DNA from: Oligoflexia bacterium
Lineage (GTDB): Bacteria > Bdellovibrionota_G > JANQFH01
Direction of reading: 5' to 3'
Length of the DNA: 64,000 bases
Assembly: GCA_028277945.1 (NCBI GenBank)
Contig: JANQFH010000008.1
Span: 195,442 to 259,441 of the forward strand
Part shown: positions 5,728 through 57,904 of the stretch, in pieces
How the letters are laid out: every line of letters begins with the position of its first letter
How positions within the stretch are numbered: the first letter of the stretch is position 1
Program-made: the position numbers and the translations under genes
The notes under the pieces: model-generated
The model's input: only the letters and a program-made list of their open reading frames with translations
Told to the model about the DNA's origin: nothing
Database searches by the model: none

Positions 5728-5736
5728 TCTCCAAAC

Positions 5737-6675: not shown

Positions 6676-6688
6676 GGCCTACAGTGAG

Positions 6689-13601: not shown

Positions 13602-14607
13602 AAGGAACGACCCTCTTGGAAATACCGCGTTTGGCAAACTACCTATCAAAAAACTGGTACGTGCTGCAGTCTTCCCTGATCGCTTTTTTGTAGGCAAAGC
13701 AGGTATCAAGCTTGTCAATTGGCAAGGAAATAATCAGTACCTTTGTGGCTTCTCATGCAGCAGACAACCGGCTATTGCCGAAAATGTAGCTGTTTTCGAA
13801 CTCTGTGAACGCTTGACAGCAAAGTATGAATTTCAATCTTTTCTGGGCACGAATATGAATACTTTCAGAGCGTTTACCTGGCCCGATGGGAATCCAGCTA
13901 GAGTGACAAAATCTCAATTATTCCTTGGTCCAAATCCATTTTCCCAATTTGGACAAGAGGCAACTGGCCTAGGTTTTGGCCCTGATTATCATCAAGCATT
14001 AAATCACGCTATTCTTGAATTGTTGGAGAGGCACATCTGCGCAGGTCTTTGGTATGAAGCAAAATATAGGCTATGCAAGGCAATCGACAGAGTATCTTTA
14101 GACTCCTTTGACATTTTCTACTATACCCTCCACAGACCGAAGATACCATTTGTTCTAGCCATTATATACTCGAATGAACTTGAGGTGCTTTCAGTCGGCC
14201 ATGCAATAAGATCTACGTTTGAGGAGGCGAAGGAAAAATCCTACTCCGAAGCAGTGATGCTGTTAGATTGTGTTCTCCACAAGGATAACGGTATCTGTAC
14301 CAATTTAAGAACTAAAAATCGTTTGCTTTCTCAAAGAGGTCCCTTAGCAAAAGAACGATTCCAACAATTTAACGATCTGACAGTAAACGTGGCAGCAGCA
14401 AAAAATATCCTAAGCCGATATTTTTCAATATCTGAGATTACTGCGGCGGTGCTTGGCACTAATGACGATATCGAAATTATTCAACTTTTCCGGGATAGAA
14501 ACTTCTGGTCTCTACGAGCACTTTCGAAGAAGGTGGCTACCTTGGCAGAACGTCGACAATCGAATCGATATTCAGAAAAACAAAAGATTCTGGACCCTTA
14601 TTGCTAA
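13582..14607 (+). CDS. minimal YcaO-domain protein (cassette D)
   Basis: ExxER motifs VAVFELCERL and ATGLGFGPDYHQALNHAILELLERH. Overlaps the HExxH gene by 20 nt. Paralog of 5737-6675. Confidence 0.6.
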   Translation: MIVRKFERNDPLGNTAFGKLPIKKLVRAAVFPDRFFVGKAGIKLVNWQGNNQYLCGFSCSRQPAIAENVAVFELCERLTAKYEFQSFLGTNMNTFRAFTWPDGNPARVTKSQLFLGPNPFSQFGQEATGLGFGPDYHQALNHAILELLERHICAGLWYEAKYRLCKAIDRVSLDSFDIFYYTLHRPKIPFVLAIIYSNELEVLSVGHAIRSTFEEAKEKSYSEAVMLLDCVLHKDNGICTNLRTKNRLLSQRGPLAKERFQQFNDLTVNVAAAKNILSRYFSISEITAAVLGTNDDIEIIQLFRDRNFWSLRALSKKVATLAERRQSNRYSEKQKILDPYC

Positions 14608-15902: not shown

Positions 15903-16034
15903 AAGGCAAGAATTAGGCCAATAGGAATGTCCGGTATTCCAATGGGTTGTAGATAGGTAACGCTTAGGAACAGTATGTCTGATATAGGACGCTCTGTTCA
16001 CCCTGAAGACAGTTTGTTTGTATTGCGAACAATT
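15903..16034. repeat. about 130-nt conserved intergenic element, copy 1 (copy 2 at 28016..28146)
   Basis: Ungapped alignment by eye gives roughly 80% identity with 28016-28146. Best-conserved blocks are TTAGGCCAAT, GTCTGATATA and TGAAGACAGTTTGTTTGTATT.CGAACAAT. ORFs over the two copies lie on different strands, so the element is not coding. Confidence 0.7.
15905..15920 (-). promoter_or_regulatory. sigma-54-like -24/-12 motif inside repeat copy 1, facing MFS gene 14620..15888
   Basis: Minus strand TGGCCTaattcTTGCC. GG at 15919-15918 and GC at 15907-15906 are 10 nt apart. It is very close to ATG 15888, so the transcript would be nearly leaderless unless the start is M10. Confidence 0.35.
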
Positions 16035-16149
16035 GAGCCGTTGCCGGTCTGCCATCATGGAACCTCGCATCTGCCTTCAAGGTAAAGGTATACTCATCTC
16101 CTGCATCAGAGAGCAGCCCATTTTCTTGACCACAAACCAACGAACGCAT
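16033..16149 (-). pseudogene. 5' remnant of a family-5 solute-binding protein gene
   Basis: MRSLVCGQENGLLSDAGDEYTFTLKADARFHDGRPATAQ.. matches SSWKVSDAGDEYTFTLNSDARFHDGSPVTARD of 43334-44740. This includes a 31-nt identical run, gatgcaggagatgagtatacctttaccttga. Homology breaks at about 16034, where repeat copy 1 begins. Confidence 0.7.
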
Positions 16150-17643
16150 CTAGCGTACCCACAAGACAGATGTATCATGTCTCGTTAGATTGATACTTTC
16201 AGGAAGCATGCCCGCAGAAGCACGATCATCGTGTACCAGGGTCTCAATAGCTCGGCCATCCGCAGATTCACCATGAAAAGCAAAGTAGCCACACCAATAG
16301 CTTAGTGGATCTGCCATGGCATTCAAGTAGGAATAGACATCTATGAGTTCAGAACGTAGCTGAGCAATCTCCGTTTCTGTTTCTCCAAGACCAAAACTCA
16401 GTTCTTCGATAGTCTCTTCCAAGTCGTGAGATGACCGCAAGTCGCCGCTGAAGCAGGTCGCAATAGCAGAAAGTCTTTCCTTCTCTAACCGGCTCAGCTT
16501 TCCTTCGTCGTGAAGTACTTGAACTTTTTGTCTAAACTCCTGTGGATTTTTCTCGATTTCCTCTACAGTAAAACTAATCGACTCTCTCTTATTTTCCAAA
16601 ATTGACAGGCCTCTCAGCGCGTCGATCAGTGTATCTATGACTACTACATCCTCGCCTTTCAAATCCTTGCGAAATTTTTCGAGACTTTGGACAGCCAATT
16701 CGACTGTCGCAAGACTTTCTCTAAAGTAGCTCCCCAGGGCCCTTCGAACAGTCATAGCATCTCCTATTAAAGAGACGAGTTCTCTTGAAGAGTCAGCAAT
16801 AGCCTCTAATCTTCTCAACCTCTGGCCTATTTCCTGACAAGGTTCGAGCAAAATTTTTCTTCTAGCACCTACTCTCAATATCAAGAGAGGAACATGATAT
16901 GGCCGATAGAACATCACAACTTCTGATAGGTCTGTCCTCGACCGCTCATCATATGAGCCCGTAATCGGATGAGGGTAGTATCGCCCTCGAAAATAATTAT
17001 CCACCACTCTTCTAATCAGTTCCCCTTTGAGACGAATTTCCAAAATTCCAGGCTCATCGATTTCAAAAGCTAGTTGAACAAACTCTGGACCAAGTTCAAA
17101 TTGCCTACCCATATCTGCATTTCTGTACATACCCCTATCGGCAAACATAATAGGTTCGCTTAGGGCAAAGTGGGAAACCCCATAATAAGCTTCCCTTTTC
17201 CTATCCCATCTCTTCAAGCTCTTCCAGGTAGTTAGAATGGTCTTTGAGTTTAAACGAACATCAACGTTTACCTTTAATCCGTCTAAACTCCTTTCCAGAT
17301 CGGTTCTCTCACCTCGCCGTTCTTCAAAACTTGCTCCAACAAAATGTAGATCTAGCTCCAAGAGGTACGGCCCTGGGCGAATGATTTTCACTCCTGGGAA
17401 CCTTAGTTCTTTGTTGCCATCTATGATATCAGGATAGTCCGAAGATAGACTGGTAATAAATCTACCGTTTTCCATCCTCCCAAAGAGTCGAAAATTAGTA
17501 ATATCAGCGTAGCTTCCAATTCTAGGACCACGAACTCCATGATAAAAAGTATCTCCAGCCTCTGCAGCACGATCACATAGCGCTACTAGTGCAACCAGAG
17601 ACAATAGGAGCCAATGGTACTTTTGTGTCTTTAGAATTATCAT
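16150..17643 (-). CDS. secreted accessory protein 'Z' of toxin module 1 (paralog of 55970..57538)
   Basis: Signal peptide HWLLLSLVALVALCDRAAEA. The C-terminal helical half aligns with 55970-57538: EPCQEIGQRLRRLEAI vs EACTNLGDAENRLSWLETL, and EEIEKNPQEFRQKV vs AKIEKRPKAFRKTV. Confidence 0.7.
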   Translation of the reverse strand: MIILKTQKYHWLLLSLVALVALCDRAAEAGDTFYHGVRGPRIGSYADITNFRLFGRMENGRFITSLSSDYPDIIDGNKELRFPGVKIIRPGPYLLELDLHFVGASFEERRGERTDLERSLDGLKVNVDVRLNSKTILTTWKSLKRWDRKREAYYGVSHFALSEPIMFADRGMYRNADMGRQFELGPEFVQLAFEIDEPGILEIRLKGELIRRVVDNYFRGRYYPHPITGSYDERSRTDLSEVVMFYRPYHVPLLILRVGARRKILLEPCQEIGQRLRRLEAIADSSRELVSLIGDAMTVRRALGSYFRESLATVELAVQSLEKFRKDLKGEDVVVIDTLIDALRGLSILENKRESISFTVEEIEKNPQEFRQKVQVLHDEGKLSRLEKERLSAIATCFSGDLRSSHDLEETIEELSFGLGETETEIAQLRSELIDVYSYLNAMADPLSYWCGYFAFHGESADGRAIETLVHDDRASAGMLPESINLTRHDTSVLWVR

Positions 17644-17648
17644 GCTAT

Positions 17649-18392
17649 TCAGTCTTTTCGCGGTGAAAAAATTACGCCCCCAAGCGTTTCAAAAGGCCTT
17701 CCTATATCTACATCTACCTTCAATACATCGCGGGTCTTGATTCTTGCCCAAAGCGTAGTCGGATCCACACGCCTTTCCTCTTCCATCCAAAACTCGTACT
17801 CGCGAACGAAGAATGCTGGAGAGGTAATATCCGCATCAAAAGCGTTCGGATTAAGATAGTAAATTCTAGGTACCCTATGTTGATGGACCCAATCTATGTC
17901 AGGTTTCTCACTACGAGGCCACTTGTGTGTTTCATAGTTGACCTCATCCACACGTGTTCCGTCGTAGCGGCGACTGTGTTTGAATGTTGCCTTGAGCTTC
18001 CGATTCTCTAGTGCTGATTTTATAATTTTGACTTTCCCAACTCCTGCATAGTGAAAAAATAGAATTACAAGTGCCGTTCGGCCTGAATCGATGTCCTGTA
18101 GAAGTTTCTGAGGAAGAACGGAATCTCTAATTTTATCCGTACCTTCCCTACTTAGGAAGTCAAAAAACCAAATTAGGAAGTCTGATCGAACGAAAAAGAA
18201 AAGTCGATCACCAACGGGATCATGAAATACAAGCGGTTCTTTTATAATCTCCTCCGCCTCGTTCTCGGAAAGCTTCACTCGATGAAAATATTTTGATTCC
18301 TTAATCACTTTGTCCGATGGAAAGTAAGAATCAGCATACAACACTGGCGTCACCACTATAAGAACACTCAAACACAACGTAAAGCGATACAA
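17649..18392 (-). CDS. secreted protein, unknown function (toxin module 1)
   Basis: ORF track. Signal peptide FTLCLSVLIVVTPVLYA. I recognised no motif. Confidence 0.6.
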   Translation of the reverse strand: MYRFTLCLSVLIVVTPVLYADSYFPSDKVIKESKYFHRVKLSENEAEEIIKEPLVFHDPVGDRLFFFVRSDFLIWFFDFLSREGTDKIRDSVLPQKLLQDIDSGRTALVILFFHYAGVGKVKIIKSALENRKLKATFKHSRRYDGTRVDEVNYETHKWPRSEKPDIDWVHQHRVPRIYYLNPNAFDADITSPAFFVREYEFWMEEERRVDPTTLWARIKTRDVLKVDVDIGRPFETLGGVIFSPRKD

Positions 18393-18395
18393 CTT

Positions 18396-19142
18396 CTACT
18401 CTCCAAAACCCTTCACAAAAAACTTCTCATCGATCAACCGCAGACCCTCATAGACCTCATACTTGATCAAGGCACCCTTGGTATCGCGGTAGAGCCCTTT
18501 GCGCACTTGTCTTGGTTTTTTGTAAAGGCCCTCAACCTTGCTCAAAAAGGCTGCCAGTTCCTCTCTACTAAAAGGGCCATGCCGTTCCCAATCGAGCCAA
18601 TCAGGGCCAATGGAGACCACCACCGATAGCTCACGGCTGCCAGGTTTTACTCCACCAAAGAGCTTCTTTGCCATCCTCTGACTGCCAAGCGTCAGGAGGT
18701 GCCAGTTGCGGCTTTCAAAATGCTCTCGCTTGTTCTGCTGATCCATAAACATAAAATAGACGCCTTCGCTCCAGGAGCTACGATCCAGATTGACGCCTTT
18801 TTTGAAGCGCTCTAAAAATGTTTTTAAATCGGCAGGTTGATCATGCCAATGCCGTATGATCCTTTTGATAAAAGACCAGGTTGAGATGACAGACATGCCC
18901 TCCTCATCTTGCGACTGATCCAGAGAGTCGAGTTTTTCTAATTCATAACCTCTAAACAGTTCCGAACCTGTATCAGGCTCTGTTACCAGCAGCAGAGCAC
19001 CATCTTTAAGTTCCACAGTATCTCCAAACTCTATAGGTCTTTCGATATCCTCAGGAACTCCAGGGATATCAATCACTGTATCTCCCTGCTGTGCAAAGGG
19101 AGAGTCTGGATGGGGGGGTCGTTTTTCTCTCTCACGCATCAC
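18396..19142 (-). CDS. cytoplasmic protein, candidate immunity protein for the RES-domain toxin
   Basis: No signal peptide. Its start overlaps the toxin stop by 4 nt (19139-19142), the usual toxin-immunity coupling. No recognisable motif. Confidence 0.5.
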   Translation of the reverse strand: MMREREKRPPHPDSPFAQQGDTVIDIPGVPEDIERPIEFGDTVELKDGALLLVTEPDTGSELFRGYELEKLDSLDQSQDEEGMSVISTWSFIKRIIRHWHDQPADLKTFLERFKKGVNLDRSSWSEGVYFMFMDQQNKREHFESRNWHLLTLGSQRMAKKLFGGVKPGSRELSVVVSIGPDWLDWERHGPFSREELAAFLSKVEGLYKKPRQVRKGLYRDTKGALIKYEVYEGLRLIDEKFFVKGFGE

Positions 19143-20923
19143 TCTAGGGCCTCAAAAAGAACGACGTTAAAGCCATCTGGATTTCTTGCCGAGGGTACGA
19201 CAATACCACGATAGTGCAGCCGCGCCAATTCTCCTATTATTTGTGTTATTGAGTAATCCTCAGAGATCAAAGCTTCAGGAGCTATATTTAATAGCTCCCT
19301 GACACTTGGTTCATTAAGATCGAGCATGTTGTCGAGTGTGACATAGCGGCTTCTTGTTTCAATCACCCCCTTGACACCATGGGCTCGCATTTCCGCGGCG
19401 ATGGTCTGCCGATCGCCGCTCATGTAAAGCGCGCTTCTTCCCGGCGCTGAATAGCGATGGTTGGCGGCAATATTACCCTGCGGTATTTTCCACGAACCTG
19501 CTCGGTAAACATCACCTCTGTATTTACTTCCCTTGACAACACCTTGAACCAGCTTTTTGGTGGTATCAGGCCCCAAAGCTTGGCTCGCCCTTATCACCGC
19601 AGGCAGATGCTGCTGATCAAAGAGCTTTCTTGCCAAGCCACCACCACCGCGCCCTAGCAAACTGGTGGTCCCTCGGACCATGACCGTGCCTGACAGGACC
19701 ATAGGCACCATCATGGAGACAACTGTCTCTAAAGCCATCTCAAGCGGCAAGCTCGCCTCGACAACTCCAGTTGACGAATCCTCTTGTAGTGCCCACAAAT
19801 GGTAGTCTGCTGCCGCCATTTTGAGTGCTCCTGACAAGAACTCGCCGTCTCGGATATCTTGCACTCCCTCAATCATTAAATAGGCGGCATCTATAAGATG
19901 TGGCAGATCTGGCAGGGTTAAGGCATGATCGAGGGTAATCTCCACATGTTGCCAGATGTGTTGGGAGAGCCTCTCACCTAGATCGCGCTCTAACAGCGCC
20001 AACTCATCGAAGGTCTCAACACGGATGCGCGCCATGGAGCTGTCTGCTTCCAAATGGAGTCGACCTTTGGCCGTTGATTGAGCGCGTTCTGCTCGGTCAA
20101 TGAGTTCGTCTAATGTCTCCTGTATCCAGCGATGTCGTATGAGATCTCGCATGCTGCGAAGCTCGTGAACCCGCCGTGAGAATGCCGCGTAGCCATAGGC
20201 AACCACCTCCTTACTTGAAGCCCGTTCCACAGCCGCCAGGGCAACATCGGTGGAGGTGGCCGTGAGCCCCAGAAATAGTGGCAATCCATGTCTGTTTTCA
20301 GGAAGTGGCAACTGAGCTTGCTGTTGAAGTTGCACAAAAAGAGAGGAGTTGTGGATCATGTCACTAGCGGAACTGTGAGAAGCGAGATCGGAACCACCCC
20401 TTTCGTGGAGGGTGCGAATGTCGAGGCCGCTTGCAGATGATTCATCTCGAAGCTGATCATCTTGAGCTTGCTCTGCAGAGAGGCTTAGATGTTTGTTACT
20501 CTCTGCAACTGCAGTGTTGGCTTGAAGTAGGCTGAGGCCACGTTGCAACCCTGTAAGGTACTGAACTCTACGCCGAGCTTCCACATCACTGTGAGTCGGT
20601 GCTGAGCCTTCTTCATCCTCATCATCAAATCCACCGATCTCTCCTCTCGGGCTATCAAAGAAAGGGTCAAATCCTTCATCTTCTGTTTTGTCTTTGGGTT
20701 TTTGAGAGGAAACGATAACAATAGGCGTGTCAAAAACAATATGGACGTTGCCATCGGAGTCAACGGTCACATTTCCTGGCTCTGTGGTGTAGTCGTGCTC
20801 TCTTTCCTGAGCTGATTCAGTTTGTCCTGCATCATCTTGTGCAACAAGCTCTCTCTGCAACGGCGAAAAAAGACAAATCGTCGCGATCAATAAATAAAGC
20901 AGGCTTTTACATGAAATTTTCAT
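19139..20923 (-). CDS. Sec-signal polymorphic toxin with C-terminal RES domain
   Basis: Signal peptide LLYLLIATICLFSPL. The C-terminus NHRYSAPGRSALYMSGDRQTIAAEMRAH .. YRGIVVPSARNPDGFNVVLF fits the RES (Arg-Glu-Ser) pattern. Its overall build is similar to 52634-54766. Confidence 0.75.
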   Translation of the reverse strand: MKISCKSLLYLLIATICLFSPLQRELVAQDDAGQTESAQEREHDYTTEPGNVTVDSDGNVHIVFDTPIVIVSSQKPKDKTEDEGFDPFFDSPRGEIGGFDDEDEEGSAPTHSDVEARRRVQYLTGLQRGLSLLQANTAVAESNKHLSLSAEQAQDDQLRDESSASGLDIRTLHERGGSDLASHSSASDMIHNSSLFVQLQQQAQLPLPENRHGLPLFLGLTATSTDVALAAVERASSKEVVAYGYAAFSRRVHELRSMRDLIRHRWIQETLDELIDRAERAQSTAKGRLHLEADSSMARIRVETFDELALLERDLGERLSQHIWQHVEITLDHALTLPDLPHLIDAAYLMIEGVQDIRDGEFLSGALKMAAADYHLWALQEDSSTGVVEASLPLEMALETVVSMMVPMVLSGTVMVRGTTSLLGRGGGGLARKLFDQQHLPAVIRASQALGPDTTKKLVQGVVKGSKYRGDVYRAGSWKIPQGNIAANHRYSAPGRSALYMSGDRQTIAAEMRAHGVKGVIETRSRYVTLDNMLDLNEPSVRELLNIAPEALISEDYSITQIIGELARLHYRGIVVPSARNPDGFNVVLFEALE

Positions 20924-22077
20924 TTTGCCAGGCTCAGAATCAACTGTAATAGAAATGTGCCGTCCCCCTCCAAGGCTTTGGCGATCTCCAACAAGAGTTC
21001 AAGCTCTTTTGCCTTTTCAGTATCTCCTTGCGCCTTCAAAGCGCTGATTCTTTTCTCAGCCTCTGCAACTGGATTGAATCCCTTGACAATACCGGCAATT
21101 CTCTCGATATCCTCTTGACTATGAGCAACAAGTACTTCCAGGTCTCCTTTCAGCTCAGCATCGCTCAACTGTGGTAACACCTCCTCCCGGATCATGTGCG
21201 TTGCTGTAGACCACGTGAAAATGGCTTCTAATGCGGCAAAGAAATCTCGATTGACCAAAACCTCTTTTTGAACCTCAAGCTTCAACGAGGAGAAGAGATC
21301 GGAAATGTCGAAAAGAAAATCAATCCGTTGAAAATCAGCAAAGTATTGTTCCTTGAGCTCCTTATAAATCGCCGCTGACAGTTCAGCGGGTGCAGCGGCA
21401 AGATAGGAGGCAAGCTGATTGTCACTGCGATCGAGTTTTCGCAGCAGAACATCAACCGCCTGTACGAGCCTATCCCCAGTCTCCAAAGCTTCTTTAAAAC
21501 CAATAATGACCTTGCGGTCCTCTTCTCGAATCCGCCGTTCCACTTCCCGAAATCCTTCTAAGTAGAGAGGATCTAATCGGTTACCAGGCGGAGGTATCCG
21601 TTCATCGATGTCTTCTCGGGTTAGCTCTGGAATAACCGCTGATAGACCGGAAGTCGCCGACAGGGCGACCTGTCGAGAGCCTGCAAGCAGGTTTCTCGCT
21701 GCATCAATGTGCGAGCGGACTTGAAAGGCGAGCGACACAGCCTGACGTATCTCTTCTCTAGAGGATGCTGTTTTAACGGCGTTGACTTTGGCAAAGGGAG
21801 CCTCCAACCCTTCTTTGGTACGGCGAAATTCGTTAAGGGCAGCCGTTAGTCGACGCGTTGACCTCGAGGCCCTTGCATAAAGACCCCGATAGTGCTTATG
21901 CGCTGCGGTGCGTCCCTCACTCTTAACGGTAGCGCTCCTGGTCTGCTCGTATTTAAGCTGGAGACGCCGCAGCTCACCTTCCAGTTCCTCTACCGACTGC
22001 GCAAAGGCAGGTGAAAGAACAAAAAGCGAGATCAGCAACGATTTTAAGACCGACATGGGTAAGTATTTAAAGCACAT
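20920..22077 (-). CDS. secreted coiled-coil accessory protein 'X' of toxin module 1 (paralog of 54768..55964)
   Basis: Signal peptide ends ..SPAFAQSVEELEGE. The paralog has ..SLSQAQSVEEMARE. It is helical and charged throughout. Overlaps the toxin start by 4 nt. The likely start is MSVLKSLL (22056). Confidence 0.7.
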   Translation of the reverse strand: MCFKYLPMSVLKSLLISLFVLSPAFAQSVEELEGELRRLQLKYEQTRSATVKSEGRTAAHKHYRGLYARASRSTRRLTAALNEFRRTKEGLEAPFAKVNAVKTASSREEIRQAVSLAFQVRSHIDAARNLLAGSRQVALSATSGLSAVIPELTREDIDERIPPPGNRLDPLYLEGFREVERRIREEDRKVIIGFKEALETGDRLVQAVDVLLRKLDRSDNQLASYLAAAPAELSAAIYKELKEQYFADFQRIDFLFDISDLFSSLKLEVQKEVLVNRDFFAALEAIFTWSTATHMIREEVLPQLSDAELKGDLEVLVAHSQEDIERIAGIVKGFNPVAEAEKRISALKAQGDTEKAKELELLLEIAKALEGDGTFLLQLILSLAK

Positions 22078-22313: not shown

Positions 22314-24110
22314 CTAACTCTGAGGCCGCAGGCCAATTGGAACGAGGCTAGCGAGACTTTTAGGAATACATTTCACACCAAGTCGAGCACAATTCATGAG
22401 GACAACCTCCTCTTCAAAATGGCTTGTCACAAGTATAGCCTGATCTTGAAGGTTGAGCTCTTCAATGAGATCGAGCCCGGTTTCCTTAAAGTTGAGAAGT
22501 TCATAGTCACACAGAAATAAAGCATTGTGTGTATCATTCTTCTCAACCCATGTTCTTATGGCGTCGGGTGTAGACAGATTGTCAAGTTTGATCCTATTTC
22601 CTCCTCCGTTGCGTAATGCATGAAATCGCTCTCGCCAAATCTGATGAATCGTAGGATCGTCGTCCAAGGTTACAATGCGGGAGTCTGGCGCAACTTCAAG
22701 TCTGGGTACAAACCAAGACGGAGGACTTTCTTTGGGTAAAAGCAGAGATATCTGAGTACCTTGTCCTTCCGTACTCTCAATTTTAAGCTCACCTCCCCAG
22801 CTTTCAGCGGCCACTTTTGCATGATAGACTCCAAGACCTAGACCACTATCCGTTCCCCCCTTTCCATAGGTCACTCCCTTTTGGCCCAGTTTTCCGAGAA
22901 TGTCCGGTGGTATTCCTGTCCCGTCGTCTTTTACATAGAGACACAATGTTGAATTATTATGTTGGAACAGGCCAATTTCGATGACACCCTCATCGGTCAT
23001 TGCTTCAACAGAGTTATTTACAAGATTTGAAATTACACGCTTAAGCTCAACAGCACTGACTTTGGCAAACAGTCCGTAGGATTTTTCATCCAATTTGGCC
23101 TCAATTCGGATTCCTGTTTTAGTTCGGAATTGACCCCGTTTTTCGCTGACGATACTTTCTATAATACTTGATATCAACCAAGTCCTTCTCATGGCTTGAT
23201 TGGGCCTCTCGTCATGTTGAGCCTGATGTATATTTCTGCCCAGCAAGTTGTTGGCGATATCTTTAATACGTTGGGACGCATTACGTATAAGAACGCGTTT
23301 CTCTTCCGGAATGTCTACAAGAGTGCCAGCCAAAAGATCCAATGCTGCTACAGGAGCTCGTATATCATGCGCGATTTGTTGAGCCACTTGGTAAACAGCT
23401 TCCGCCTTTTTTGTTTCGATCCTATATTGATTTGACTGAAGAGTTTGTTGCGCAAGTTTCCTAATGGAAGAGGTGAGAATAACAACTTCGGACAGATCAC
23501 CCTTGATATTTGGCTGATCAAGGAGTGAAAGATCTTCTAAGTTGCCACTTTCAGCTGTTTGACTAAGCGTGTGTAGCGGTGCTGAGATCCGATGTGCCAC
23601 TCTTTTTAGCATAAGGAAAGCTATAGCAGCGATAGTCATTAAGACAAATAGAGATACTCCCATAATCCGGTAGTATAGACCACGAATGATTCCGGTATTA
23701 AACCTCATACTAACCATAGCCGCTGGTTGTGTCTTTTCGTCGTCAAAATATACAGTGCGTTCAACGACAAATTTACTCGTCCTCGACACTTCTGCAGTTT
23801 CTGGTAAACTCTCGTAAATAACTTCTCCTCTTATGTTCGAAATAATAATGTTATCTATGGCCTCTTTTTTTATCAAGAGATTGCACTTTTCACGGATGCT
23901 GAGGTGAGAGCCGGTAAGAATTTCGTAGCGAATATTCTCGGAAAAGAGTTCTAAAATCATCTCATGTTTTGACGCAACTAAGTTATCGAAACTCTTGTTA
24001 ACCGCAAATAGAATTAGGATTCCCACAAGAATTAAACCCAATGATACTGTTATTGAAAAAGTTCTGAGTAAACTGGTGAATACAGTATGTTGACGTTTAG
24101 GCATTTCCAC
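22314..24110 (-). CDS. hybrid sensor histidine kinase (cassette B)
   Basis: Two TM segments. H-box IAHDIRAPVAAL. N-box NLVNNSVEAM. G-boxes DDGTGIP and GTDSGLGLG. C-terminal receiver-like domain (IVTLDDD .. LFLCDYEL .. ILVTSH .. IPK). Confidence 0.85.
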   Translation of the reverse strand: MEMPKRQHTVFTSLLRTFSITVSLGLILVGILILFAVNKSFDNLVASKHEMILELFSENIRYEILTGSHLSIREKCNLLIKKEAIDNIIISNIRGEVIYESLPETAEVSRTSKFVVERTVYFDDEKTQPAAMVSMRFNTGIIRGLYYRIMGVSLFVLMTIAAIAFLMLKRVAHRISAPLHTLSQTAESGNLEDLSLLDQPNIKGDLSEVVILTSSIRKLAQQTLQSNQYRIETKKAEAVYQVAQQIAHDIRAPVAALDLLAGTLVDIPEEKRVLIRNASQRIKDIANNLLGRNIHQAQHDERPNQAMRRTWLISSIIESIVSEKRGQFRTKTGIRIEAKLDEKSYGLFAKVSAVELKRVISNLVNNSVEAMTDEGVIEIGLFQHNNSTLCLYVKDDGTGIPPDILGKLGQKGVTYGKGGTDSGLGLGVYHAKVAAESWGGELKIESTEGQGTQISLLLPKESPPSWFVPRLEVAPDSRIVTLDDDPTIHQIWRERFHALRNGGGNRIKLDNLSTPDAIRTWVEKNDTHNALFLCDYELLNFKETGLDLIEELNLQDQAILVTSHFEEEVVLMNCARLGVKCIPKSLASLVPIGLRPQS

Positions 24111-25611
24111 CTAATCCTTTTCGGTGCAATTTCCATAATTCATGAAAAAATGTCTCTCCAAATTTTGGCATGTCTATTTGCTTTTTTAAGAGAATAGGAT
24201 AGTCAAAGGCCAGAATAGGGACAAAAAAATGTCTGCTTTCAAAATCTACCAGCTCTCTCTCGTACAGTTTTAGGCGTCGCAAGCGTTTTTTAGTAAACCG
24301 GATTGCCGAAATCCTATCCAAGAATTCTTTAACGGGAAATAATCTTTCAACGCCAAATAGCTTGCTCTGTAGAGGCCACAGGTAGCCATCTGGATCAGTT
24401 AGGCCTGCACCAAAAATAAAAGAGATCAGATCGAAATCCCCTGTCTTGTAGTAATTCAATAGCAGGGCCAAATCGACGATTCGAATATCCGGAACTAACC
24501 CTAGTCGTTCTAAAAGGGAGGAAACGCTATTGATGTGTTGCTGAGACATAAAACCTTTGTATACAACGACTCGAAATTTGTGGCCCTCAAGTTTCGGATA
24601 TTTTGTGACAAAGTTATCTTCAGTGATTTGGCTTTTTCTTGGTCCATAATAAGACATCGGAAGAGTACCCTCGGGAAGGAAGGTATGAAGAGATTTCTGG
24701 AAAGGCACTAGATTTTTCTTGATGGTGGATAGTGATGAAATAAGATAGCTTAAGTCGCGTCGTAGATTAGAGGACTTTAGATGGGCTCTATGTGTGTTAT
24801 ATAGGAAATGTAACACAAACACATTGTTGGGAAGAACCACATCAAAGCTGCTGCTATCAAGTTTGATTTTCGCAAGTTCATATGGGGCCACACCCAAAAA
24901 AACATCGAATTTGTTGGCCTCTATCAAGGTTCTTAAATCACTATAATCGTATCCTTCAACCACAAGTTTATAAATATTTTCGGAGGAAGTTCTTGGTTCA
25001 AAGCTCCAAGTTTTTCCTTTATTTGTTAGACTTGCAGTCATTAAACCGGAGCCGGTACAACAAAACGATTCTTTTTCGACAATGCCAAAAAGAGGATTGT
25101 TAAGAAGCTTTAGAAAAGGAGGATAGGGCCCCTTGAGATAAAATCTAATGTGTTGTTCGTCTATTGCCTCGACAGCATTGGTGCCTGCTTTGGTCTTGGG
25201 TTGCAGGGCAAGCTCCAAAATCGATCGTGAAGAAAAGTTTGATTCTAAAATTCTGAGAAATGAGTGCTCAACATCTTTGGCAGTGATTTTTCTTCCATTA
25301 TGAAAGCGTAGGTTAGGTTTTAGCTTAAAAGTGTATTCTCTGCCACTATCGTTTATGCTCCAACTTTCGGCTAGTTCAGACACAACAATACCTCTCTCAT
25401 TCAGGCGGACTAGACGCGAAAATACACAGGCGCTCATCATAAGGTGCGATACCGATACTATTTTCATTGGATCTAGAGTTTGTGGGAGAATGCTCACACC
25501 AATCTTTAGTTCATTGTAATTCGTCAGGTCTTTTGCCAGCAAATCAGTACTCAAAAAGCATATTAAGAATAGCACGGAGAAAATATTGAATTGTTTAGCA
25601 CTCTTTTTCAT
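24097..25611 (-). CDS. periplasmic solute-binding protein, family 5 (cassette B)
   Basis: Start taken at MKKSAKQFNIFSVLFLICFLSTDLLA (signal peptide), 6 nt after the MFS stop. Signature region LAESWSINDSGREYTFKLKPNLRFHNGRKITAKDVEHSF. The 3' end overlaps the HK start by 14 nt. Confidence 0.85.
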   Translation of the reverse strand: MKKSAKQFNIFSVLFLICFLSTDLLAKDLTNYNELKIGVSILPQTLDPMKIVSVSHLMMSACVFSRLVRLNERGIVVSELAESWSINDSGREYTFKLKPNLRFHNGRKITAKDVEHSFLRILESNFSSRSILELALQPKTKAGTNAVEAIDEQHIRFYLKGPYPPFLKLLNNPLFGIVEKESFCCTGSGLMTASLTNKGKTWSFEPRTSSENIYKLVVEGYDYSDLRTLIEANKFDVFLGVAPYELAKIKLDSSSFDVVLPNNVFVLHFLYNTHRAHLKSSNLRRDLSYLISSLSTIKKNLVPFQKSLHTFLPEGTLPMSYYGPRKSQITEDNFVTKYPKLEGHKFRVVVYKGFMSQQHINSVSSLLERLGLVPDIRIVDLALLLNYYKTGDFDLISFIFGAGLTDPDGYLWPLQSKLFGVERLFPVKEFLDRISAIRFTKKRLRRLKLYERELVDFESRHFFVPILAFDYPILLKKQIDMPKFGETFFHELWKLHRKGLGGNA

Positions 25612-25616
25612 TTGTG

Positions 25617-50306: not shown

Positions 50307-50425
50307 AATTCCCGATCGGTAATAAATAGGCCTCAAATCTGTCTTATTTGATATAAAATTCCCGATCAGGAATAATTTTCTTGATTTCAGTCTAGGTGTA
50401 GATTAATATTCCCGTACGGGAATAT
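50307..50425. promoter_or_regulatory. three palindromic operator-like sites upstream of hipBA
   Basis: ATTCCCGATCGGTAAT (50308-23), ATTCCCGATCAGGAAT (50358-73) and the perfect 20-mer ATATTCCCGTACGGGAATAT (50406-25), which overlaps the hipB ATG. The site centres are exactly 50 bp apart. Confidence 0.6.
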
Positions 50426-50654
50426 GAAACAGGCAGCAGCACAGATTGGTCATTTAGTGAAAAAGACCCGTAAAAGTCTAGGTGTCACCCAGAAGGAGTT
50501 GGCGCTGACCTCGGGTACAGGTCTGCGCTTCATCATTGAGCTGGAGAAGGGCAAACCGACCTGTCAACTAGCCAAGGTGCTGACGGTTCTACATACGCTG
50601 GGCATCAAGCTTGAGCTAACGGCGCCAGCCACTGCAAGAGATGACGGCAAATGA
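50424..50654 (+). CDS. hipB: HipB-like XRE-family antitoxin/repressor
   Basis: HTH LGVTQKELALTSGTGLRFIIELEKGKPTCQLAKVLTVLHTLGIKLEL. Overlaps hipA by 4 nt. Confidence 0.8.
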   Translation: MKQAAAQIGHLVKKTRKSLGVTQKELALTSGTGLRFIIELEKGKPTCQLAKVLTVLHTLGIKLELTAPATARDDGK

Positions 50655-51913: not shown

Positions 51914-52268
51914 TTATTTCCCCCATCCGATATATTTCTTGTAACCTTTTTCTAAATTTATAATTTCAAAGACATCACCATCAAATGTTGAGCACTGCAA
52001 TTTTTTTCCATTACATCCAAGATTGGCGTAGTTAATTTCTGGCTGGTGTCTGGATGGCGGTGCTAGGGTCCACATTTCTTTACCGTTTAGATCGAACGCT
52101 CGGATGTTTTGTGGGTCTCTGGATTCAAAGAGAAAGACGATGAGTTTATCAGCTAGGTAGGCTGTTTGATACATTCCCACAATGCTTTGGGATTGGTACA
52201 GGCTTGAGGTTATCAGTTTTTATCTCTATGTTATCGCCGTTAGTAATAAAATATATTGAATTGAGCAT
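51914..52268 (-). pseudogene. second, frameshifted copy of the TNT-toxin immunity candidate
   Basis: The 3' part (51914-52180, ..LIVFLFESRDPQNIRAFDLNGKEMW..FEIINLEKGYKKYIGWGK) and a 5' part in another frame (ATG 52268: MLNSIYFITNGDNIEIKTDNLKPVPIPKHCGN..) together align along the intact 121-aa paralog. The frames switch near 52172-52185. Confidence 0.5.
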
Positions 52269-52292
52269 TCTGAGTTTGCCAAACAACGTTGA

Positions 52293-52658
52293 TTACTTAC
52301 CCCATCTTTTTTTAAAACCTTTTTCTAGGTTTATGATCTCGAATACATCGCACTCCACTGTAGCGCATAGCAGACTGTTTTCATATTCCCATAGATTGAC
52401 GTAGTAGACCTCCGGTCTATATCTAGATGCCTTTGTTAGTGCCCATAATTCATTGCCATGGAGATCAAAAGCACGGATATTCTGTGGGTCTTTGGATCTA
52501 AAAAGTACAATAATGATGTTATCGATCAGATATCCTACTGTAATCTTCCCATATGTTTTAGGAAGGAGTATGGATTTGTGATTGTCTACTTTTATTTCTA
52601 TTCTATTGTCTCTTTCTAGAAGTTTTTGTAATTTCACCATATTATTGGTTCGCTCCAT
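52293..52658 (-). CDS. cytoplasmic protein, candidate immunity protein for the TNT-like toxin
   Basis: No signal peptide. It overlaps the toxin 3' end. A tandem paralog lies downstream. Confidence 0.55.
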   Translation of the reverse strand: MERTNNMVKLQKLLERDNRIEIKVDNHKSILLPKTYGKITVGYLIDNIIIVLFRSKDPQNIRAFDLHGNELWALTKASRYRPEVYYVNLWEYENSLLCATVECDVFEIINLEKGFKKRWGK

Positions 52659-54766
52659 GCTTCAACCGATGATTCTAGAGGTTCATCAATCAATTCCCAT
52701 TGAATGCCTCCACCCGGAGTACCGAATTCATCAACTTTGTCGACGATTCCCTTTCTTAGAACAGTACTCGTAGGGACACGAACTTCGACCATGAAGGTCA
52801 TACTATTATTTGGAGGAAGAGAATATAAATCCCTTACAACACTTTTACTCAGAGTTCGAGGATCAACTTCCATTAACCATGGCCCCATTTTGTCAGAATT
52901 ATCTCCAAACACTCGATAGAAGATTTTTGTTTCTTTTAGTTCTATTGTTTCAACAATCTGATTTGGGGCATAGGGCCTGATACCTTTGGCATATTTCCAA
53001 TAGCTGTCAACCGCACCGGCGGTCTGTTTGCCAGGAAGAGCAGCTTTTGCCAGTTTGGTCCAGGTCGAGGCTTGTGTGAGCTCTTCTGGGGTTATCTGGT
53101 CCTTTTGTACGGCGCGGAAGCCGCGAAGGGAGAGGAGGACAGGACGTTTTTTGACGAAGGCTTCTACGGTCTCTGGGCCCAGCTCTGCGACCACCGTGGC
53201 GAATCCGGCGCTGGCCTGCTTTTCTCCGGAAATGGCCATCTTTAGGGCGATGGCTTGGGTATAGGGGCCGAGACGGGGCAGGGTATCGACAAGAACGCCA
53301 GACTGTAATGCCTTTGCCATCCTGGCGTGGTGGATTTTGGCGAGGGGGATGCCAACTTTACTCAAGACAACGCGTAATGATTGGACGCCGATGGCTCTGG
53401 CAAGACCGCCGATGGTATTAACGCCGAGGCTGCCGAGTGCCAGGACCGTTTCCCCAGCTATCCCTGGGGCAGTGATGGCGTCACGATCCACAAAGCCATC
53501 GGTGAGATACTTGGCGATGGCTGCTGCGGTTGCTGCTCGCAGGTAGTCGCCTTGGGAGAGGGCCTCTTGGCTACTGCGGATCTGCTCCTGCAGTAGGGCA
53601 GGTGAGTACGGTTGGTTGTAAGGGGTGATCTTACCGGCAACCACCTGCTGGTTGTAAAGGGCAGCACGGATCAGGGTGTTGAACACGGCACTTTCGGCTG
53701 CTGCATCGATCTCCGCCAGTCCTTCGTGCAGAGTGCGTTCAAAATCGTAACTGCGGAGAATTCCCGCCAGTCCTGAACGGAGTGTGGCGAGTTTCGTGCG
53801 CATGCTTTCAAAAAGCTCACGGGTTGCCAGCATCGAGGCATGCAAGTTGGGATCTTCAATCAGATCGGCAACAGCCTCGATGGTAAGCAGATGCAGATCA
53901 ACAGCTTCGGTGAGCTCTAAGACAAGATACTCGTCGTTGACACGAATGGCCTCCTCGACTTTGGCTCCTAGAGGCGCGTACGCAGCTGCCAGGGACTGTT
54001 TGAGTGGGTCTCTGAGAAGAGAGAGAGGATTTTGAAAGACATCATGGAAGATCTGTTCAGGGTTCCAGAGATTTTCTAGATCCACCTCCTGCATGGCTTC
54101 TTCAATGAGCTCTCTGTGGGTGGCACGGGCCATGTTTGCTACTGCCTTGTCCCCCTCTAAGGTATCGAGGCCGACGACAATGGTGTTTTCACTCAAGTGG
54201 CTCCATTTGAGATTTGCCTGTTGATGAAAGCGCTGGTAAAGCGCTTGCATCCGGGGGATTAAGGATTGTTGTTCGTAACCTTTCCACTGTTGGTGTTTGA
54301 TGCGGATCACTTCTGAATTGGGACGAACAGTGTGCAATGGCTCAGGTCTTTTAGGTGGCTCTCTAGGATCGACCTCACCAGGATGAGGTCTGTCCCAGTG
54401 AAAGGGATCGAAGTCATTAAAATGATCATGACCGTTGCTGTTGGGAAGGTCGTCTTCAGCATACTGTTCATCGACCGGATGAGGTCGTTCTGTCGGGTTT
54501 TTTGGGGATTCGTTCTTTACGGGAAATTCAACATCACGCTCCATCGTGACGGTGATTTTTCCTGTTTTAGGATCTATATAAACTCCAGGATAACCTCCAG
54601 GCATGATGTCTTTAGGCGCGTGGTTATTTCCTGGTTTTTCGACCTCGCTCCCATTGCCATCACCGCCGCCTGTTTCCTGAGCGCTAGCTGATAAATCAAC
54701 AGCTGATGTGGCCATGATATAGAGAGTCAACAAGAAGGTGATAAATCTCTTCAGAGAGTCCTTCAT
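52634..54766 (-). CDS. Sec-signal polymorphic toxin with C-terminal TNT-like (NAD+ glycohydrolase family) domain
   Basis: Signal peptide FLLTLYIMATSAVDLSASA. The C-terminus FYRVFGDNSDKMGPWLM..RDLYSLPPNNS..FMVEVRVPTSTVLRKGIVDKVDEFGTPGGGIQWEL resembles the TNT-domain pattern as I recall it (R.G...G.f .. LP .. y.V.. .. fg.pGGG.Q). Confidence 0.6.
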   Translation of the reverse strand: MKDSLKRFITFLLTLYIMATSAVDLSASAQETGGGDGNGSEVEKPGNNHAPKDIMPGGYPGVYIDPKTGKITVTMERDVEFPVKNESPKNPTERPHPVDEQYAEDDLPNSNGHDHFNDFDPFHWDRPHPGEVDPREPPKRPEPLHTVRPNSEVIRIKHQQWKGYEQQSLIPRMQALYQRFHQQANLKWSHLSENTIVVGLDTLEGDKAVANMARATHRELIEEAMQEVDLENLWNPEQIFHDVFQNPLSLLRDPLKQSLAAAYAPLGAKVEEAIRVNDEYLVLELTEAVDLHLLTIEAVADLIEDPNLHASMLATRELFESMRTKLATLRSGLAGILRSYDFERTLHEGLAEIDAAAESAVFNTLIRAALYNQQVVAGKITPYNQPYSPALLQEQIRSSQEALSQGDYLRAATAAAIAKYLTDGFVDRDAITAPGIAGETVLALGSLGVNTIGGLARAIGVQSLRVVLSKVGIPLAKIHHARMAKALQSGVLVDTLPRLGPYTQAIALKMAISGEKQASAGFATVVAELGPETVEAFVKKRPVLLSLRGFRAVQKDQITPEELTQASTWTKLAKAALPGKQTAGAVDSYWKYAKGIRPYAPNQIVETIELKETKIFYRVFGDNSDKMGPWLMEVDPRTLSKSVVRDLYSLPPNNSMTFMVEVRVPTSTVLRKGIVDKVDEFGTPGGGIQWELIDEPLESSVEAWSEPIIW

Positions 54767-54767
54767 G

Positions 54768-55964
54768 TTAATCTTCTTCTAGTTTGTTGAGAGCTAGTTC
54801 CGCGAACGCGGCATATGTGCCATGGCTGTCTTCGTTAGCGATTTCTGCGTAGAGTAGAAGTGCCTTTGCCTGTTCAAGCTCTGCTGGCAGGACTCTGCCG
54901 CTCTTTTCTAGCTTGCGGATACGCTTTTGGATCCAATAGGAAGGTGGATTCTTTGTGACCAGGCGTCGGTATTTTTTGACCTTTGCTGTCCATTCAACGG
55001 CCAGCTCTTTTGCCTTTTTCGCCTCTTTTTCGCGCAAATCAAGCGACAGTAGGGCATTAAGGAGGATGAGAGAACCTGTTTGCAGGACTTCTAACCTTCG
55101 TAGGGCCTCAAAGTAACGGTAGTGCAGGAGTAAAGCATCTTGAAACTGTTGCTCCAGCTCCACCAATACATTCTCGGCATCGTAGTAGGCGTCAAGACTG
55201 ACTTCTGCATGAGCCAGCCTCTCCTGAAAATCCTTGTACATACCATGGGCTAAAACTTCGGAGGTGTGGTCGAGGTATTTCTCCAAAGTTTCGCCATACT
55301 GCTCGAAAATGCGCCCATAAGCTTGCTCGACTTGTGGCAATGGTTGCCTGAGCTTTTCGCAGTAATCCACCAGAGGGGAGAAACCATGTGATTTGAGCCA
55401 AGAGATTGCACCTGCAAGGGATGGCTTGTAGCCGTATTGCAGATCTTGTGAATATTCGGGAGGAATGGCATCTACAAGTCGGTCGGCGTTGGTTTCGAGG
55501 ACGATGCGACACTGTGCTTCCATGGACGATAACGACCTACGGTATCGTTCCAAGGCCGTGGTGGCTTTATGTTCTTCCTCGGCAAACCCAAAAGCCGCCG
55601 TATGGAGCTTTTGTGTCCACTGCTTTGCCTCTTCAGCCCCTAGACTCTCAACCTCCGGAGGTTGTATTACTTGGACATTCTCAGCAGCTACAGCAATGGT
55701 CCTGAATGCAGACTTCATCACCTCACGATGTTTGACCCCTTGTAGATATGCCCCATTCAAGAAATCGTAGGCTTGCAGGCGGGCCTTTTCATGGACTATC
55801 TTGCGTTTTAGCTCATCTTTTTGCGTCTCAATTTCTCTCCTCTCACGTGCCATTTCTTCGACAGATTGTGCCTGACTAAGAGAAGGAAGTGAGACAAACA
55901 ACAAAAGTAAAAGAGGAAGATTGAACAGGTTTGTCATAACAACGTTACTTTTAATCGCCCTCAA
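54768..55964 (-). CDS. secreted coiled-coil accessory protein 'X' of toxin module 2
   Basis: The signal peptide ends SLSQAQSVEEM. It is helical and charged. Paralog of 20920-22077. It lies immediately upstream of the toxin with a 1-nt gap. Confidence 0.7.
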   Translation of the reverse strand: MRAIKSNVVMTNLFNLPLLLLLFVSLPSLSQAQSVEEMARERREIETQKDELKRKIVHEKARLQAYDFLNGAYLQGVKHREVMKSAFRTIAVAAENVQVIQPPEVESLGAEEAKQWTQKLHTAAFGFAEEEHKATTALERYRRSLSSMEAQCRIVLETNADRLVDAIPPEYSQDLQYGYKPSLAGAISWLKSHGFSPLVDYCEKLRQPLPQVEQAYGRIFEQYGETLEKYLDHTSEVLAHGMYKDFQERLAHAEVSLDAYYDAENVLVELEQQFQDALLLHYRYFEALRRLEVLQTGSLILLNALLSLDLREKEAKKAKELAVEWTAKVKKYRRLVTKNPPSYWIQKRIRKLEKSGRVLPAELEQAKALLLYAEIANEDSHGTYAAFAELALNKLEED

Positions 55965-55969
55965 TAGTG

Positions 55970-57538
55970 CTAATAGCGGCGTCCTACTTGGTCTCCATAT
56001 CTATCTAGTATAGGAGTTTGCGTCCTGTACTTTTTATCGCCTTCGATAGCCCCAATAGCGGCGTCCTCCTTGGCCTCCATACACTTTGTATAGAGCAGAT
56101 CGCGTCCTGTATCTTTTAAGGCGCGAATAAACTTTTGCAGGTGTTTGGTTTCATCTTGCACTTCAAAACTCTTGGAAATCAGCATGGCATGCAGCTCTGT
56201 TAAGCGAGTGAATGCTCTGCCTATCTCGTCTTCCGGGCCGACTGTATCTGTAGGTTCCTGCATAAGGCTGTAAACGGCGATCAGGCGCTCATAGTCGCTT
56301 AGCGACAATTCTTCGTCTTCATAGAGCTCTTCTACTGTCTTCCGAAACGCTTTCGGGCGCTTCTCGATCTTAGCTAGCGTCCATTCCTGCAGATTCCCTA
56401 CTTTTTTGAGTAACAACAGCCCTTCGAGTGTTGCGGCTGTAAGTTCTAACTCTTGGAAGGTATCGTCGTACTCCTCATCGTTTATAGCGCGGAGACGATC
56501 GATGATTCTTTTTAGCGAGGATTCGGATTTCTTGAAATAGGCTTTGAATATCCTGCGTGCCTCAAAATTGACCATTAACGCTCTTTCAAGATCTTCTTTG
56601 TCTGATTTAATTAGCGTTTCGAGCCAACTCAGGCGATTTTCTGCATCACCAAGGTTTGTGCAAGCTTCGAGCACAGAGTCTTCATAAACAAGGAGATCGT
56701 AACCAACGAGGTTAAGGGAGTAACTACGAAGCATCCCAACAGGCATTTTTATCTTTATTGTTGTGTTTCCCAGCAGGTCTAACTGCTGTCTCATGCTGGA
56801 CCTTGCTGTGTAGGTCCATCGCTGTGGTCCTCTTTCTTGACACCAAAATCCGTCTTTAGGATTATGATGGTGTGCGTGACGCCCATTTAAATTGCAGTAA
56901 CACCAGCCACTGTCACCCGTGTAGGTGGGTTTTCCATAGCGCCAATGATCCTCGGGAAAGACGATTTCAACACGGTGCATACGGTATAGAGAGTTTAACT
57001 TGCTTAAAGGGGTGTCACCGAGAAATGCATTGGTCGTCTGTTCGGTGCGAAATTTATTCCAGTCTATGACTGCGAGTGGAAGAGGAAAGTTTTCAATATC
57101 ATACCTCTTATAAGATGCTGGAGGATCTAACGCAGACGAGAAAGGTCGATAGCTGACGGTTGTTTGGGGAAATGGATATTTGTATTTAAACAGTGTTTCG
57201 TCATTTTGTTTATAATAGAGCTTAAAATAGACGTTGCTTCCTAAGAGCTGCTGCTCCAGCTCTCTATGTACTTCGGAATCATCAATTCCTTCGCCTTTCG
57301 CACCCATCTTGCCAAATAGCCGAACTTTGTAGGTGGCGGGATAGAGATATGATTCTCTTTCGTCAATATCCTCAAAATCTGAAAGGAATAATCCCAAGGA
57401 AGGAAGGCCTTGCTTCATCGCATAGCTGTTAACGTAGTAAATTTCACTCTTAGCCCAGGAGATTGGTGGAAAAATAATTAGGACCATGGTTAGAAGCAGA
57501 AAATATAGCCAGGGGATATGTGTTACTCGGTTTGACAT
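55970..57538 (-). CDS. secreted accessory protein 'Z' of toxin module 2
   Basis: Signal or anchor sequence WLYFLLLTMVLIIFPPISWA. The C-terminal helical half is homologous to 16150-17643. Confidence 0.7.
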   Translation of the reverse strand: MSNRVTHIPWLYFLLLTMVLIIFPPISWAKSEIYYVNSYAMKQGLPSLGLFLSDFEDIDERESYLYPATYKVRLFGKMGAKGEGIDDSEVHRELEQQLLGSNVYFKLYYKQNDETLFKYKYPFPQTTVSYRPFSSALDPPASYKRYDIENFPLPLAVIDWNKFRTEQTTNAFLGDTPLSKLNSLYRMHRVEIVFPEDHWRYGKPTYTGDSGWCYCNLNGRHAHHHNPKDGFWCQERGPQRWTYTARSSMRQQLDLLGNTTIKIKMPVGMLRSYSLNLVGYDLLVYEDSVLEACTNLGDAENRLSWLETLIKSDKEDLERALMVNFEARRIFKAYFKKSESSLKRIIDRLRAINDEEYDDTFQELELTAATLEGLLLLKKVGNLQEWTLAKIEKRPKAFRKTVEELYEDEELSLSDYERLIAVYSLMQEPTDTVGPEDEIGRAFTRLTELHAMLISKSFEVQDETKHLQKFIRALKDTGRDLLYTKCMEAKEDAAIGAIEGDKKYRTQTPILDRYGDQVGRRY

Positions 57539-57886: not shown

Positions 57887-57904
57887 CTCGTCCTGAGTAA
57901 GGTG

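Follow-up and report, generated by a model that had tools for sequence, protein, structure and literature searches.

An operon of an Oligoflexia bacterium encodes a signal-peptide-bearing RES protein and is a probable Sec-dependent polymorphic toxin-immunity locus

In a 64,000-nucleotide stretch of contig JANQFH010000008.1 from an Oligoflexia bacterium, hereafter called the window, positions 16150..22077 are filled by five open reading frames (ORFs) arranged head to tail on the minus strand. This operon, here called module 1, encodes g594, a protein that combines a signal-peptide-like N-terminus with a C-terminal RES domain, and directly behind it g248, the immunity candidate. The C-terminus of g594 is an intact RES-fold domain, and sequence comparisons establish that its RES subfamily is used as the predicted C-terminal warhead of Rhs, PAAR and TPS toxins. 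We consider it likely that module 1 is a Sec-dependent polymorphic toxin-immunity locus. The original prediction, made from the DNA letters of this stretch, had described the toxin and the immunity candidate; all elements of that description were found where it had placed them, with matches far beyond chance. It had left undescribed that the two genes belong to a five-gene operon with secreted partners and that a second module is present in the window.

The presence of the RES domain was assessed by profile search with HMMER. The Pfam family PF08808 (RES) matched residues 482-591 of g594 with 47.0 bits (cut-off 23.2; E=3.6e-12), which confirms the C-terminal RES domain of the original prediction, and no second significant Pfam domain was found on this protein. 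The NCBIfam model Res_ParT_toxin reached 13.5 bits against a cut-off of 110. The AlphaFold2 model, for which 48 sequences were aligned, gives residues 445-594 a predicted local distance difference test score (pLDDT) of 94-98, and the C-terminal domain shows the RES/ADP-ribosyltransferase-like fold. R490, Y500, E511 and S578 do not vary among 48 sequences of the RES subfamily, and R474 hardly does. The spacing of R474, R490, Y500 and E511 (16, 10 and 11 residues) resembles that of R27, R47, Y58 and E69 in MbcT (20, 11 and 11), whose toxicity depends on R27, R47 and Y58 (PMC6436930). The four residues of g594 appear to correspond to those of MbcT in this order, which we infer in part from the spacing and the published residues.

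To find relatives, g594 was searched with HMMER against 1.84 billion representative proteins, yielding 238 matches at E<=0.001. All 238 are confined to the C-terminal part of g594; they start at residues 371-522 and mostly cover residues 445-594, and the matched proteins are 89 to 4517 amino acids (aa) long. When the listed relatives were compared with the domain profile, 148 of the 149 had the end of the match no more than 20 residues from their C-terminus. The part in front of the domain is 100 residues or longer in 97 of the 149 and 300 or longer in 48. The architecture of the carriers was examined by Pfam on six long relatives. One (P0143) combines ESPR, TPS and haemagglutinin repeats, another (P0137) prePAAR, PAAR, DUF6531 and RHS; DUF6531 and RHS were found on two (P0150 and P0066), haemagglutinin repeats on P0056 and LysM on P0113. 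The RES domain therefore recurs on unrelated delivery regions, namely TPS, PAAR-Rhs, Rhs, LysM and signal-peptide carriers. It is because of the C-terminal placement together with the recurrence on TPS, PAAR-Rhs and Rhs carriers that we read the subfamily as a polymorphic-toxin warhead, and on this point the proposal of an exported RES warhead in the original prediction is supported.

RES toxins of this kind have been catalogued before. Zhang et al. (2012, Biol Direct 7:18; PMC3482391) listed Tox-RES (PF08808) with delivery by type II, type V and type VI secretion systems (T2SS, T5SS and T6SS), with RHS or filamentous-haemagglutinin repeats and with the immunity family Imm51. In that work 'T2SS' stands for the Sec class, which is defined by a signal peptide only, and RES was guessed to be an RNase (PMC3482391). 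The use of RES as a secreted polymorphic toxin was thus already described in 2012, and module 1 is a new example, a Sec-dependent Tox-RES. Later work assigned NAD+ degradation or ADP-ribosylation to RES domains. Like Tox-RES, g594 carries a C-terminal PF08808 warhead, has a signal peptide only and is followed directly by a downstream gene. Unlike in the Tox-RES systems listed in 2012, the immunity candidate g248 does not match Imm51 (E<=1), and both the N-terminal region of g594 and the accessory genes of the operon are orphans.

In the Xre-RES systems (MbcTA, ParST, ResT-Xre and NatRT), the toxin is small (about 150-250 aa) and cytoplasmic and is paired with an Xre-DUF2384 antitoxin; g594, in contrast, has 594 aa and a signal peptide, and no DUF2384-like or helix-turn-helix (HTH) partner was found in the window. 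Certain Rhs/PAAR (T6SS) and CdiA/TPS (T5SS) toxins share the same RES subtype and are 33-48% identical to g594 in this domain. A predicted Rhs-RES T6SS effector is Tfe2 of P. fluorescens F113 (PMC7970981). Unlike the Rhs/PAAR and CdiA/TPS toxins, g594 carries neither TPS, haemagglutinin repeats, PAAR, RHS and DUF6531 nor LXG/WXG in Pfam searches at E<=1, as expected from the original prediction, which saw no T5, T6, T7 or Rhs marker. With a signal-peptide-like N-terminus and no secretion-system domain, g594 fits the Sec-dependent class.

Signal peptides were judged for all operon proteins from hydrophobicity and inspection of the sequence. The N-terminus of g594 consists of MKISCK, a 13-residue hydrophobic core and an end in ..ELVA followed by QDD, so that n, h and c regions are present; cleavage is predicted between ELVA and QDD. 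Behind it, residues 29-109 and 165-236 have low pLDDT and are probably disordered, and two helical parts (residues 111-164 and 237-384) were modelled with pLDDT 63-83. The signal peptide, the helical region and the Gly-rich hydrophobic stretch that follows it are all elements which the original prediction had named, and they are seen here in hydrophobicity, by inspection and in the AlphaFold2 helices. The first 370 residues of g594 had no homologue among the 1.84 billion representative proteins (HMMER), and a search of 5.8 billion proteins with full-length g594 returned the source genome only. A ClyA- or colicin-like pore-forming N-terminal module was considered and is unsupported, as fold searches gave generic helical bundles such as BAR domains and designed proteins.

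The five genes are tightly packed, with junctions of -4, -4 (or -1), +3 and +5 nucleotides (nt) in operon order. The stop codon of g385 overlaps the start of g594 in an ATGA. At the g594/g248 junction the overlap is a GTGA if the GTG start of g248 is used or, with the ATG start of the public gene annotation, a TGATG. Four of the five products have signal-peptide-like N-termini, in which a positive stretch is followed by a hydrophobic core; the sole exception is g248, which has no hydrophobic N-terminus. This agrees with the earlier description of a following gene that overlaps by 4 nt, given the GTG start, and lacks a signal peptide. On the opposite strand, no ORF of at least 80 aa competes with g248. 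None of the five operon proteins gave anything meaningful in PADLOC or NCBIfam. A promoter and terminator scan performed no better than on shuffled sequence and showed no minus-strand promoter upstream of g385.

Searching 5.8 billion proteins with g248 returned the identical protein only. No match was found in Pfam (Imm51 included, E<=1), NCBIfam, PADLOC or the PDB, and the single-sequence AlphaFold2 model, with a pLDDT of 36, is unusable. The case for an immunity role of g248 is purely positional, as it comes from the position of the gene, the overlap and the absent signal peptide. We therefore turned to the genes downstream of related RES toxins in 25 loci, four of whose source genomes are unrelated metagenome-assembled genomes found by a RES pattern scan. 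A small gene without a signal peptide lies directly after the toxin gene in 21 of the 25, often with a 4-nt overlap, and the g594/g248 junction is of the same type as these toxin/downstream-gene overlaps.

The downstream genes of the related loci belong to different families. In 14 loci (L002-L006, L008, L010 and L014-L020) the next gene encodes a protein of 70-90 aa with the motif DLP.W...W..P.PALGG.S; the version in L006 is duplicated and has 181 aa. A profile hidden Markov model (HMM) made from the first seven of these loci recovers seven independent ones with E=1e-10 to 1e-23. Xre_MbcA_ParS_C (DUF2384) is the toxin-binding domain of RES antitoxins. Sub-threshold matches to this Pfam family were obtained for five of six tested 70-90-aa proteins, the best with 23.2 bits against a cut-off of 24.5. 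Behind polymorphic RES toxins on Rhs and other carriers, such a stand-alone DUF2384-like protein of 70-90 aa, with the HTH absent, is the usual neighbour. In Zhang et al. 2012, DUF2384 is listed for toxin-antitoxin systems only (PMC3482391). A second family, of 94-96 aa, occurs in five loci (L022-L025 and L028) and a third, of 155 aa, in two (L021 and L026). The remaining four loci have a different downstream gene or none on the same strand, the latter being the case in L007 and L011. When the window was translated in all six frames, the DUF2384-like HMM found nothing (best E=0.31, outside the operon), and Pfam gave no Xre/DUF2384 hit for any operon protein. Evidently, several unrelated immunity families can fit the RES warhead of g594. 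Of the original proposal that g248 is the immunity candidate, the position, the overlap and the missing signal peptide stand, while the protein has no relatives and lies outside the known RES immunity families.

This last point could also be explained if g594 were a secreted effector against prey or eukaryotic cells, or a protein released by vesicles or lysis, with g248 acting as an export chaperone or being an unrelated member of the operon and the producer protecting itself by exporting the toxin unfolded. Besides falling outside the immunity families that are paired with related RES toxins, g248 is, with its 248 aa, two to three times the size of their proteins. L007 and L011 do without a downstream gene on the same strand, and secretion of four of the five operon products would suit an effector as well. 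On the other hand, the overlap of g594 and g248 is a junction typical of the toxin-immunity pairs in related loci, and the small downstream gene of the second module is duplicated, which is typical of immunity genes. Moreover, NAD+ is cytoplasmic, and a cytoplasmic protector is what one would expect against a toxin acting on it. Taken together, we regard such an effector as rather unlikely.

The hydrophobic stretch of g594 raises a question of topology. Residues 392-416 of g594 read LPLEMALETVVSMMVPMVLSGTVMV and are followed by RGTTSLLGRGGGGLARKL. If this stretch stops translocation, the RES domain stays in the cytoplasm of the producer. We therefore asked how the stretch compares with membrane helices. 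Its Kyte-Doolittle mean (residues 392-417) of 1.68 is at the borderline for membrane helices. On the Hessa scale, which was used in a rough, position-independent form and summed over 19-residue windows, the stretch scores +5.0 and an analogous stretch of g710, the toxin of the second module, +5.3. The genuine membrane helices of the window, taken from its MFS transporters, histidine kinases and CHASE2 protein, range from -5.4 to +1.8. The uncharged core has 17 residues, one proline included; E389, E395 and E399 precede it, and R417, R425, R432 and K433 follow. AlphaFold2 places a hydrophobic helix at residues 394-410 with pLDDT 41-55. A crude hydrophobicity screen of the signal-peptide-type relatives showed that most of them lack a membrane-grade segment ahead of the RES domain. 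That the hydrophobic stretch is part of a conserved cassette was considered and rejected, as it shows no independent similarity to the relatives (E>1) and is alike in composition only.

It is conceivable that residues 392-417 form a stop-transfer anchor which leaves the helical region in the periplasm and the RES domain in the cytoplasm, restrained there by g248. The protein would then be no weapon and instead an envelope-triggered toxin-antitoxin or abortive-infection device. The borderline Kyte-Doolittle mean would allow this, the charges around the stretch follow the positive-inside rule, a cytoplasmic partner suits such a layout and the window is rich in toxin-antitoxin modules (HipA, Fic). 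However, the Hessa sum of the stretch lies far outside the range of the membrane helices of the window, its uncharged core is short and contains a proline, and the AlphaFold2 confidence is low at this place. The RES subfamily is overwhelmingly a secreted-toxin warhead, most of its signal-peptide-type members lack such a segment, and no PADLOC defence family was matched. We consider the anchored form improbable. Full export is favoured because of the Hessa sum, the short core with its proline and the lack of such a segment in most signal-peptide-type relatives; the RES domain of g594 is thus probably exported. A decayed remnant, in which the RES domain is inactive and the operon products serve the envelope in some unrelated way, would fit with all partners being orphans, but it is very improbable in view of the intact state of every residue conserved across the subfamily, the very high confidence of the domain model and five uninterrupted, tightly coupled ORFs.

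An all-against-all BLAST within the window revealed a second set of genes (51914..57538), module 2, that resembles module 1. The accessory proteins g385 and g398 share 20% identity over 359 aa (BLASTP, E=3e-5), nearly their full length, and both predicted mature proteins begin with QSVEE. The C-terminal helical part of g497 is 27% identical to g522 over 134 residues (BLASTP, E=4e-10), and g247 weakly resembles the N-terminal part of g522 (E=0.001 in a single-pair BLASTP). The layout of g710 is that of g594, with a signal peptide, an acidic low-complexity region, a helical region, a hydrophobic Gly-rich stretch and a C-terminal domain. At the sequence level the two proteins are not similar. A constant N-terminus is not found in the two toxins, and only the flanking accessory genes of modules 1 and 2 are paralogous. 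The string 'ETV...GGLAR' is shared by g594 and g710 and is too short to serve as evidence. No family was matched by the C-terminus of g710 (Pfam, E<=0.1; PDB sequence search). Within its last ~150 residues (52634-52900), 'FGTPGGGIQWEL' is reminiscent of the GGGxQ motif of TNT/Tne-type NAD+ glycohydrolases, a resemblance unsupported by Pfam and the PDB search. A duplicated small downstream gene, as seen with g121 and g88, is a common feature of immunity loci. By their behaviour, modules 1 and 2 are like a small lineage-specific polymorphic toxin system.

Outside the source genome the accessory proteins stand apart. No Pfam, NCBIfam or PDB match was obtained for g385 and no family or PDB match for g497, and a profile from the g385 and g398 alignment, searched against 5.8 billion proteins, found the source genome only. 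The ten module proteins had no match among the ORFs of 24 related loci (phmmer). In three unrelated metagenomic loci (L006, 2153-5825; L008, 284-2143; L009, 789-3049), large helix-rich secreted or lipoprotein-type proteins precede signal-peptide RES toxins, and in L006 and L008 their genes overlap the toxin gene. They have no detectable homology to g385 or g398; these upstream proteins hint that helper proteins could be general but fast-evolving.

The arrangement of module 1 is reminiscent of the Maf systems of Neisseria, in which mafA lies upstream, MafA is an outer-membrane protein required for secretion of the Sec-exported MafB, and mafI follows (PMC7738311; PMC3482391). As in Maf, a gene for a secreted accessory protein is followed by a signal-peptide toxin gene and an immunity (candidate) gene, and several modules occur per genome. 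In contrast to Maf, no Maf-related Pfam family (MafB DUF1020, MafA) was found on g594 and g385 (E<=1) or on g710 and g398 (E<=0.1). Apart from RES on g594, these four proteins gave Pfam hits that were scattered and below threshold. MafA is a lipoprotein, whereas g385 and g398 have no lipobox cysteine and g385 looks all-helical. In addition, g594 and g710 share no recognisable N-terminal domain. The resemblance of module 1 to Maf is therefore one of design, not of family membership.

For module 1, the following mechanism can be proposed. The toxin g594 would be made with a cleavable signal peptide and exported whole via Sec. Its lineage-specific N-terminal region, together with g385, g247 and g497, may aid exit from the producer or entry into the target cell, for which MafA serves as the precedent. 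There, we infer, the RES domain would destroy NAD+, as in MbcT, Res and NatT, or ADP-ribosylate a target, as in ParT. In the producer and its kin, g248, translationally coupled to the toxin, would bind and block the RES domain. Several findings weigh against such a toxin-immunity locus. The immunity candidate has no detectable relative, domain or confident structure and is unrelated to the three families (Xre_MbcA_ParS_C-like, 94-aa and 155-aa) that stand beside the closest RES relatives. The C-terminal flank of the hydrophobic stretch is positively charged, as in a stop-transfer anchor. The N-termini of g594 and g710 have no sequence similarity, unlike the constant N-terminus of classic polymorphic toxins. 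Furthermore, no outer-membrane secretion machinery was identified, and since the accessory proteins have no homologues outside the source genome, their delivery role is drawn by analogy.

A wider reading goes beyond the single locus. The two modules might define an undescribed Sec-dependent multi-protein delivery system, in which 'A' (g385/g398) and 'D' (g497/g522, perhaps also g247) would carry or translocate interchangeable toxins, like MafA/MafB in function and unrelated to them in sequence, and g248 would found a new and unusually large RES immunity family. We put this forward tentatively, as a possibility of which we are doubtful. The positions of the module genes and of the parts of g594 are collected in Table 1.

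Table 1. Genes of modules 1 and 2 and regions of g594, in window positions
Feature	Position	Strand	Description
g385	22077..20920	-	Module 1; accessory protein 'A', predicted secreted, helix-rich; signal peptide ..PAFA, then QSVEE
g594	20923..19139	-	Module 1; predicted toxin precursor: signal peptide, acidic disordered region, helical region, hydrophobic Gly-rich stretch, RES domain
g594 residues 1-28	20840..20923	-	Signal-peptide-like N-terminus without canonical lipobox
g594 residues 111-384	19772..20593	-	Orphan helical region with low-confidence gap at 165-236 (AlphaFold2)
g594 residues 392-417	19673..19750	-	Hydrophobic segment, then Gly-rich GRGGGGLARKL
g594 residues 458-594	19142..19552	-	RES C-terminal toxin domain
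g248	19142..18396	-	Module 1; immunity candidate; GTG start at 19142 or ATG at 19139
g247	18392..17649	-	Module 1; orphan, predicted secreted protein; begins 3 nt past g248
g497	17643..16150	-	Module 1; accessory protein 'D', predicted secreted; begins 5 nt past g247
g522	57538..55970	-	Module 2; paralogue of g497
g398	55964..54768	-	Module 2; paralogue of g385
g710	54766..52634	-	Module 2; signal-peptide toxin (predicted), C-terminus differs from that of g594
g121	52658..52293	-	Module 2; overlaps the end of g710
g88	52180..51914	-	Module 2; copy of g121, 55% identical

Some further features of the window were recorded. The G+C content is 0.45-0.50 over module 1 (16000-22000) and about 0.40-0.43 in its flanks (14-16 kb and 22-26 kb), which, in a window that ranges from 0.39 to 0.53 as a whole, hints mildly at a foreign origin. 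A solute-binding protein of the SBP_bac_5 family and a histidine kinase are paired in three cassettes, at 3907-8248, 22314-25701 and 35658-40130; one has a YcaO gene between its genes and one adjoins a LanM-like DUF4135 protein. Module 1 is immediately preceded, on its own strand, by the second cassette, with no promoter-like site found between the two, and the cassettes may be peptide-sensing regulators of the toxin operon. Genes of the kind found in biological conflicts are present at 9717-10907, 13582-14607, 50424-51907 and 57902-58536, namely Fic, a second YcaO, a HipB-like/HipA pair and an AbrB-like/PIN (VapBC-like) pair, the last of which adjoins module 2. The names HipA, Fic and YcaO come from Pfam, and the VapBC and HipB readings were made from sequence alone. 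A gene for the selenocysteine elongation factor SelB at 488-2617 shows selenoprotein use in this organism.

RES enzymes are potent toxins that destroy NAD+, and work on them has dealt almost solely with intracellular toxin-antitoxin pairs. To our knowledge, the literature holds no experimental test of a Sec-only RES toxin. As a test case, module 1 is compact: its toxin has no known injection machinery, its immunity candidate lies outside the known families, and its accessory proteins are repeated in module 2. If g594 behaves as expected, it would be one further example of a known category. It could also show how a toxin with nothing more than a signal peptide exits one cell and enters another, which is a question for the largest class of polymorphic toxins.

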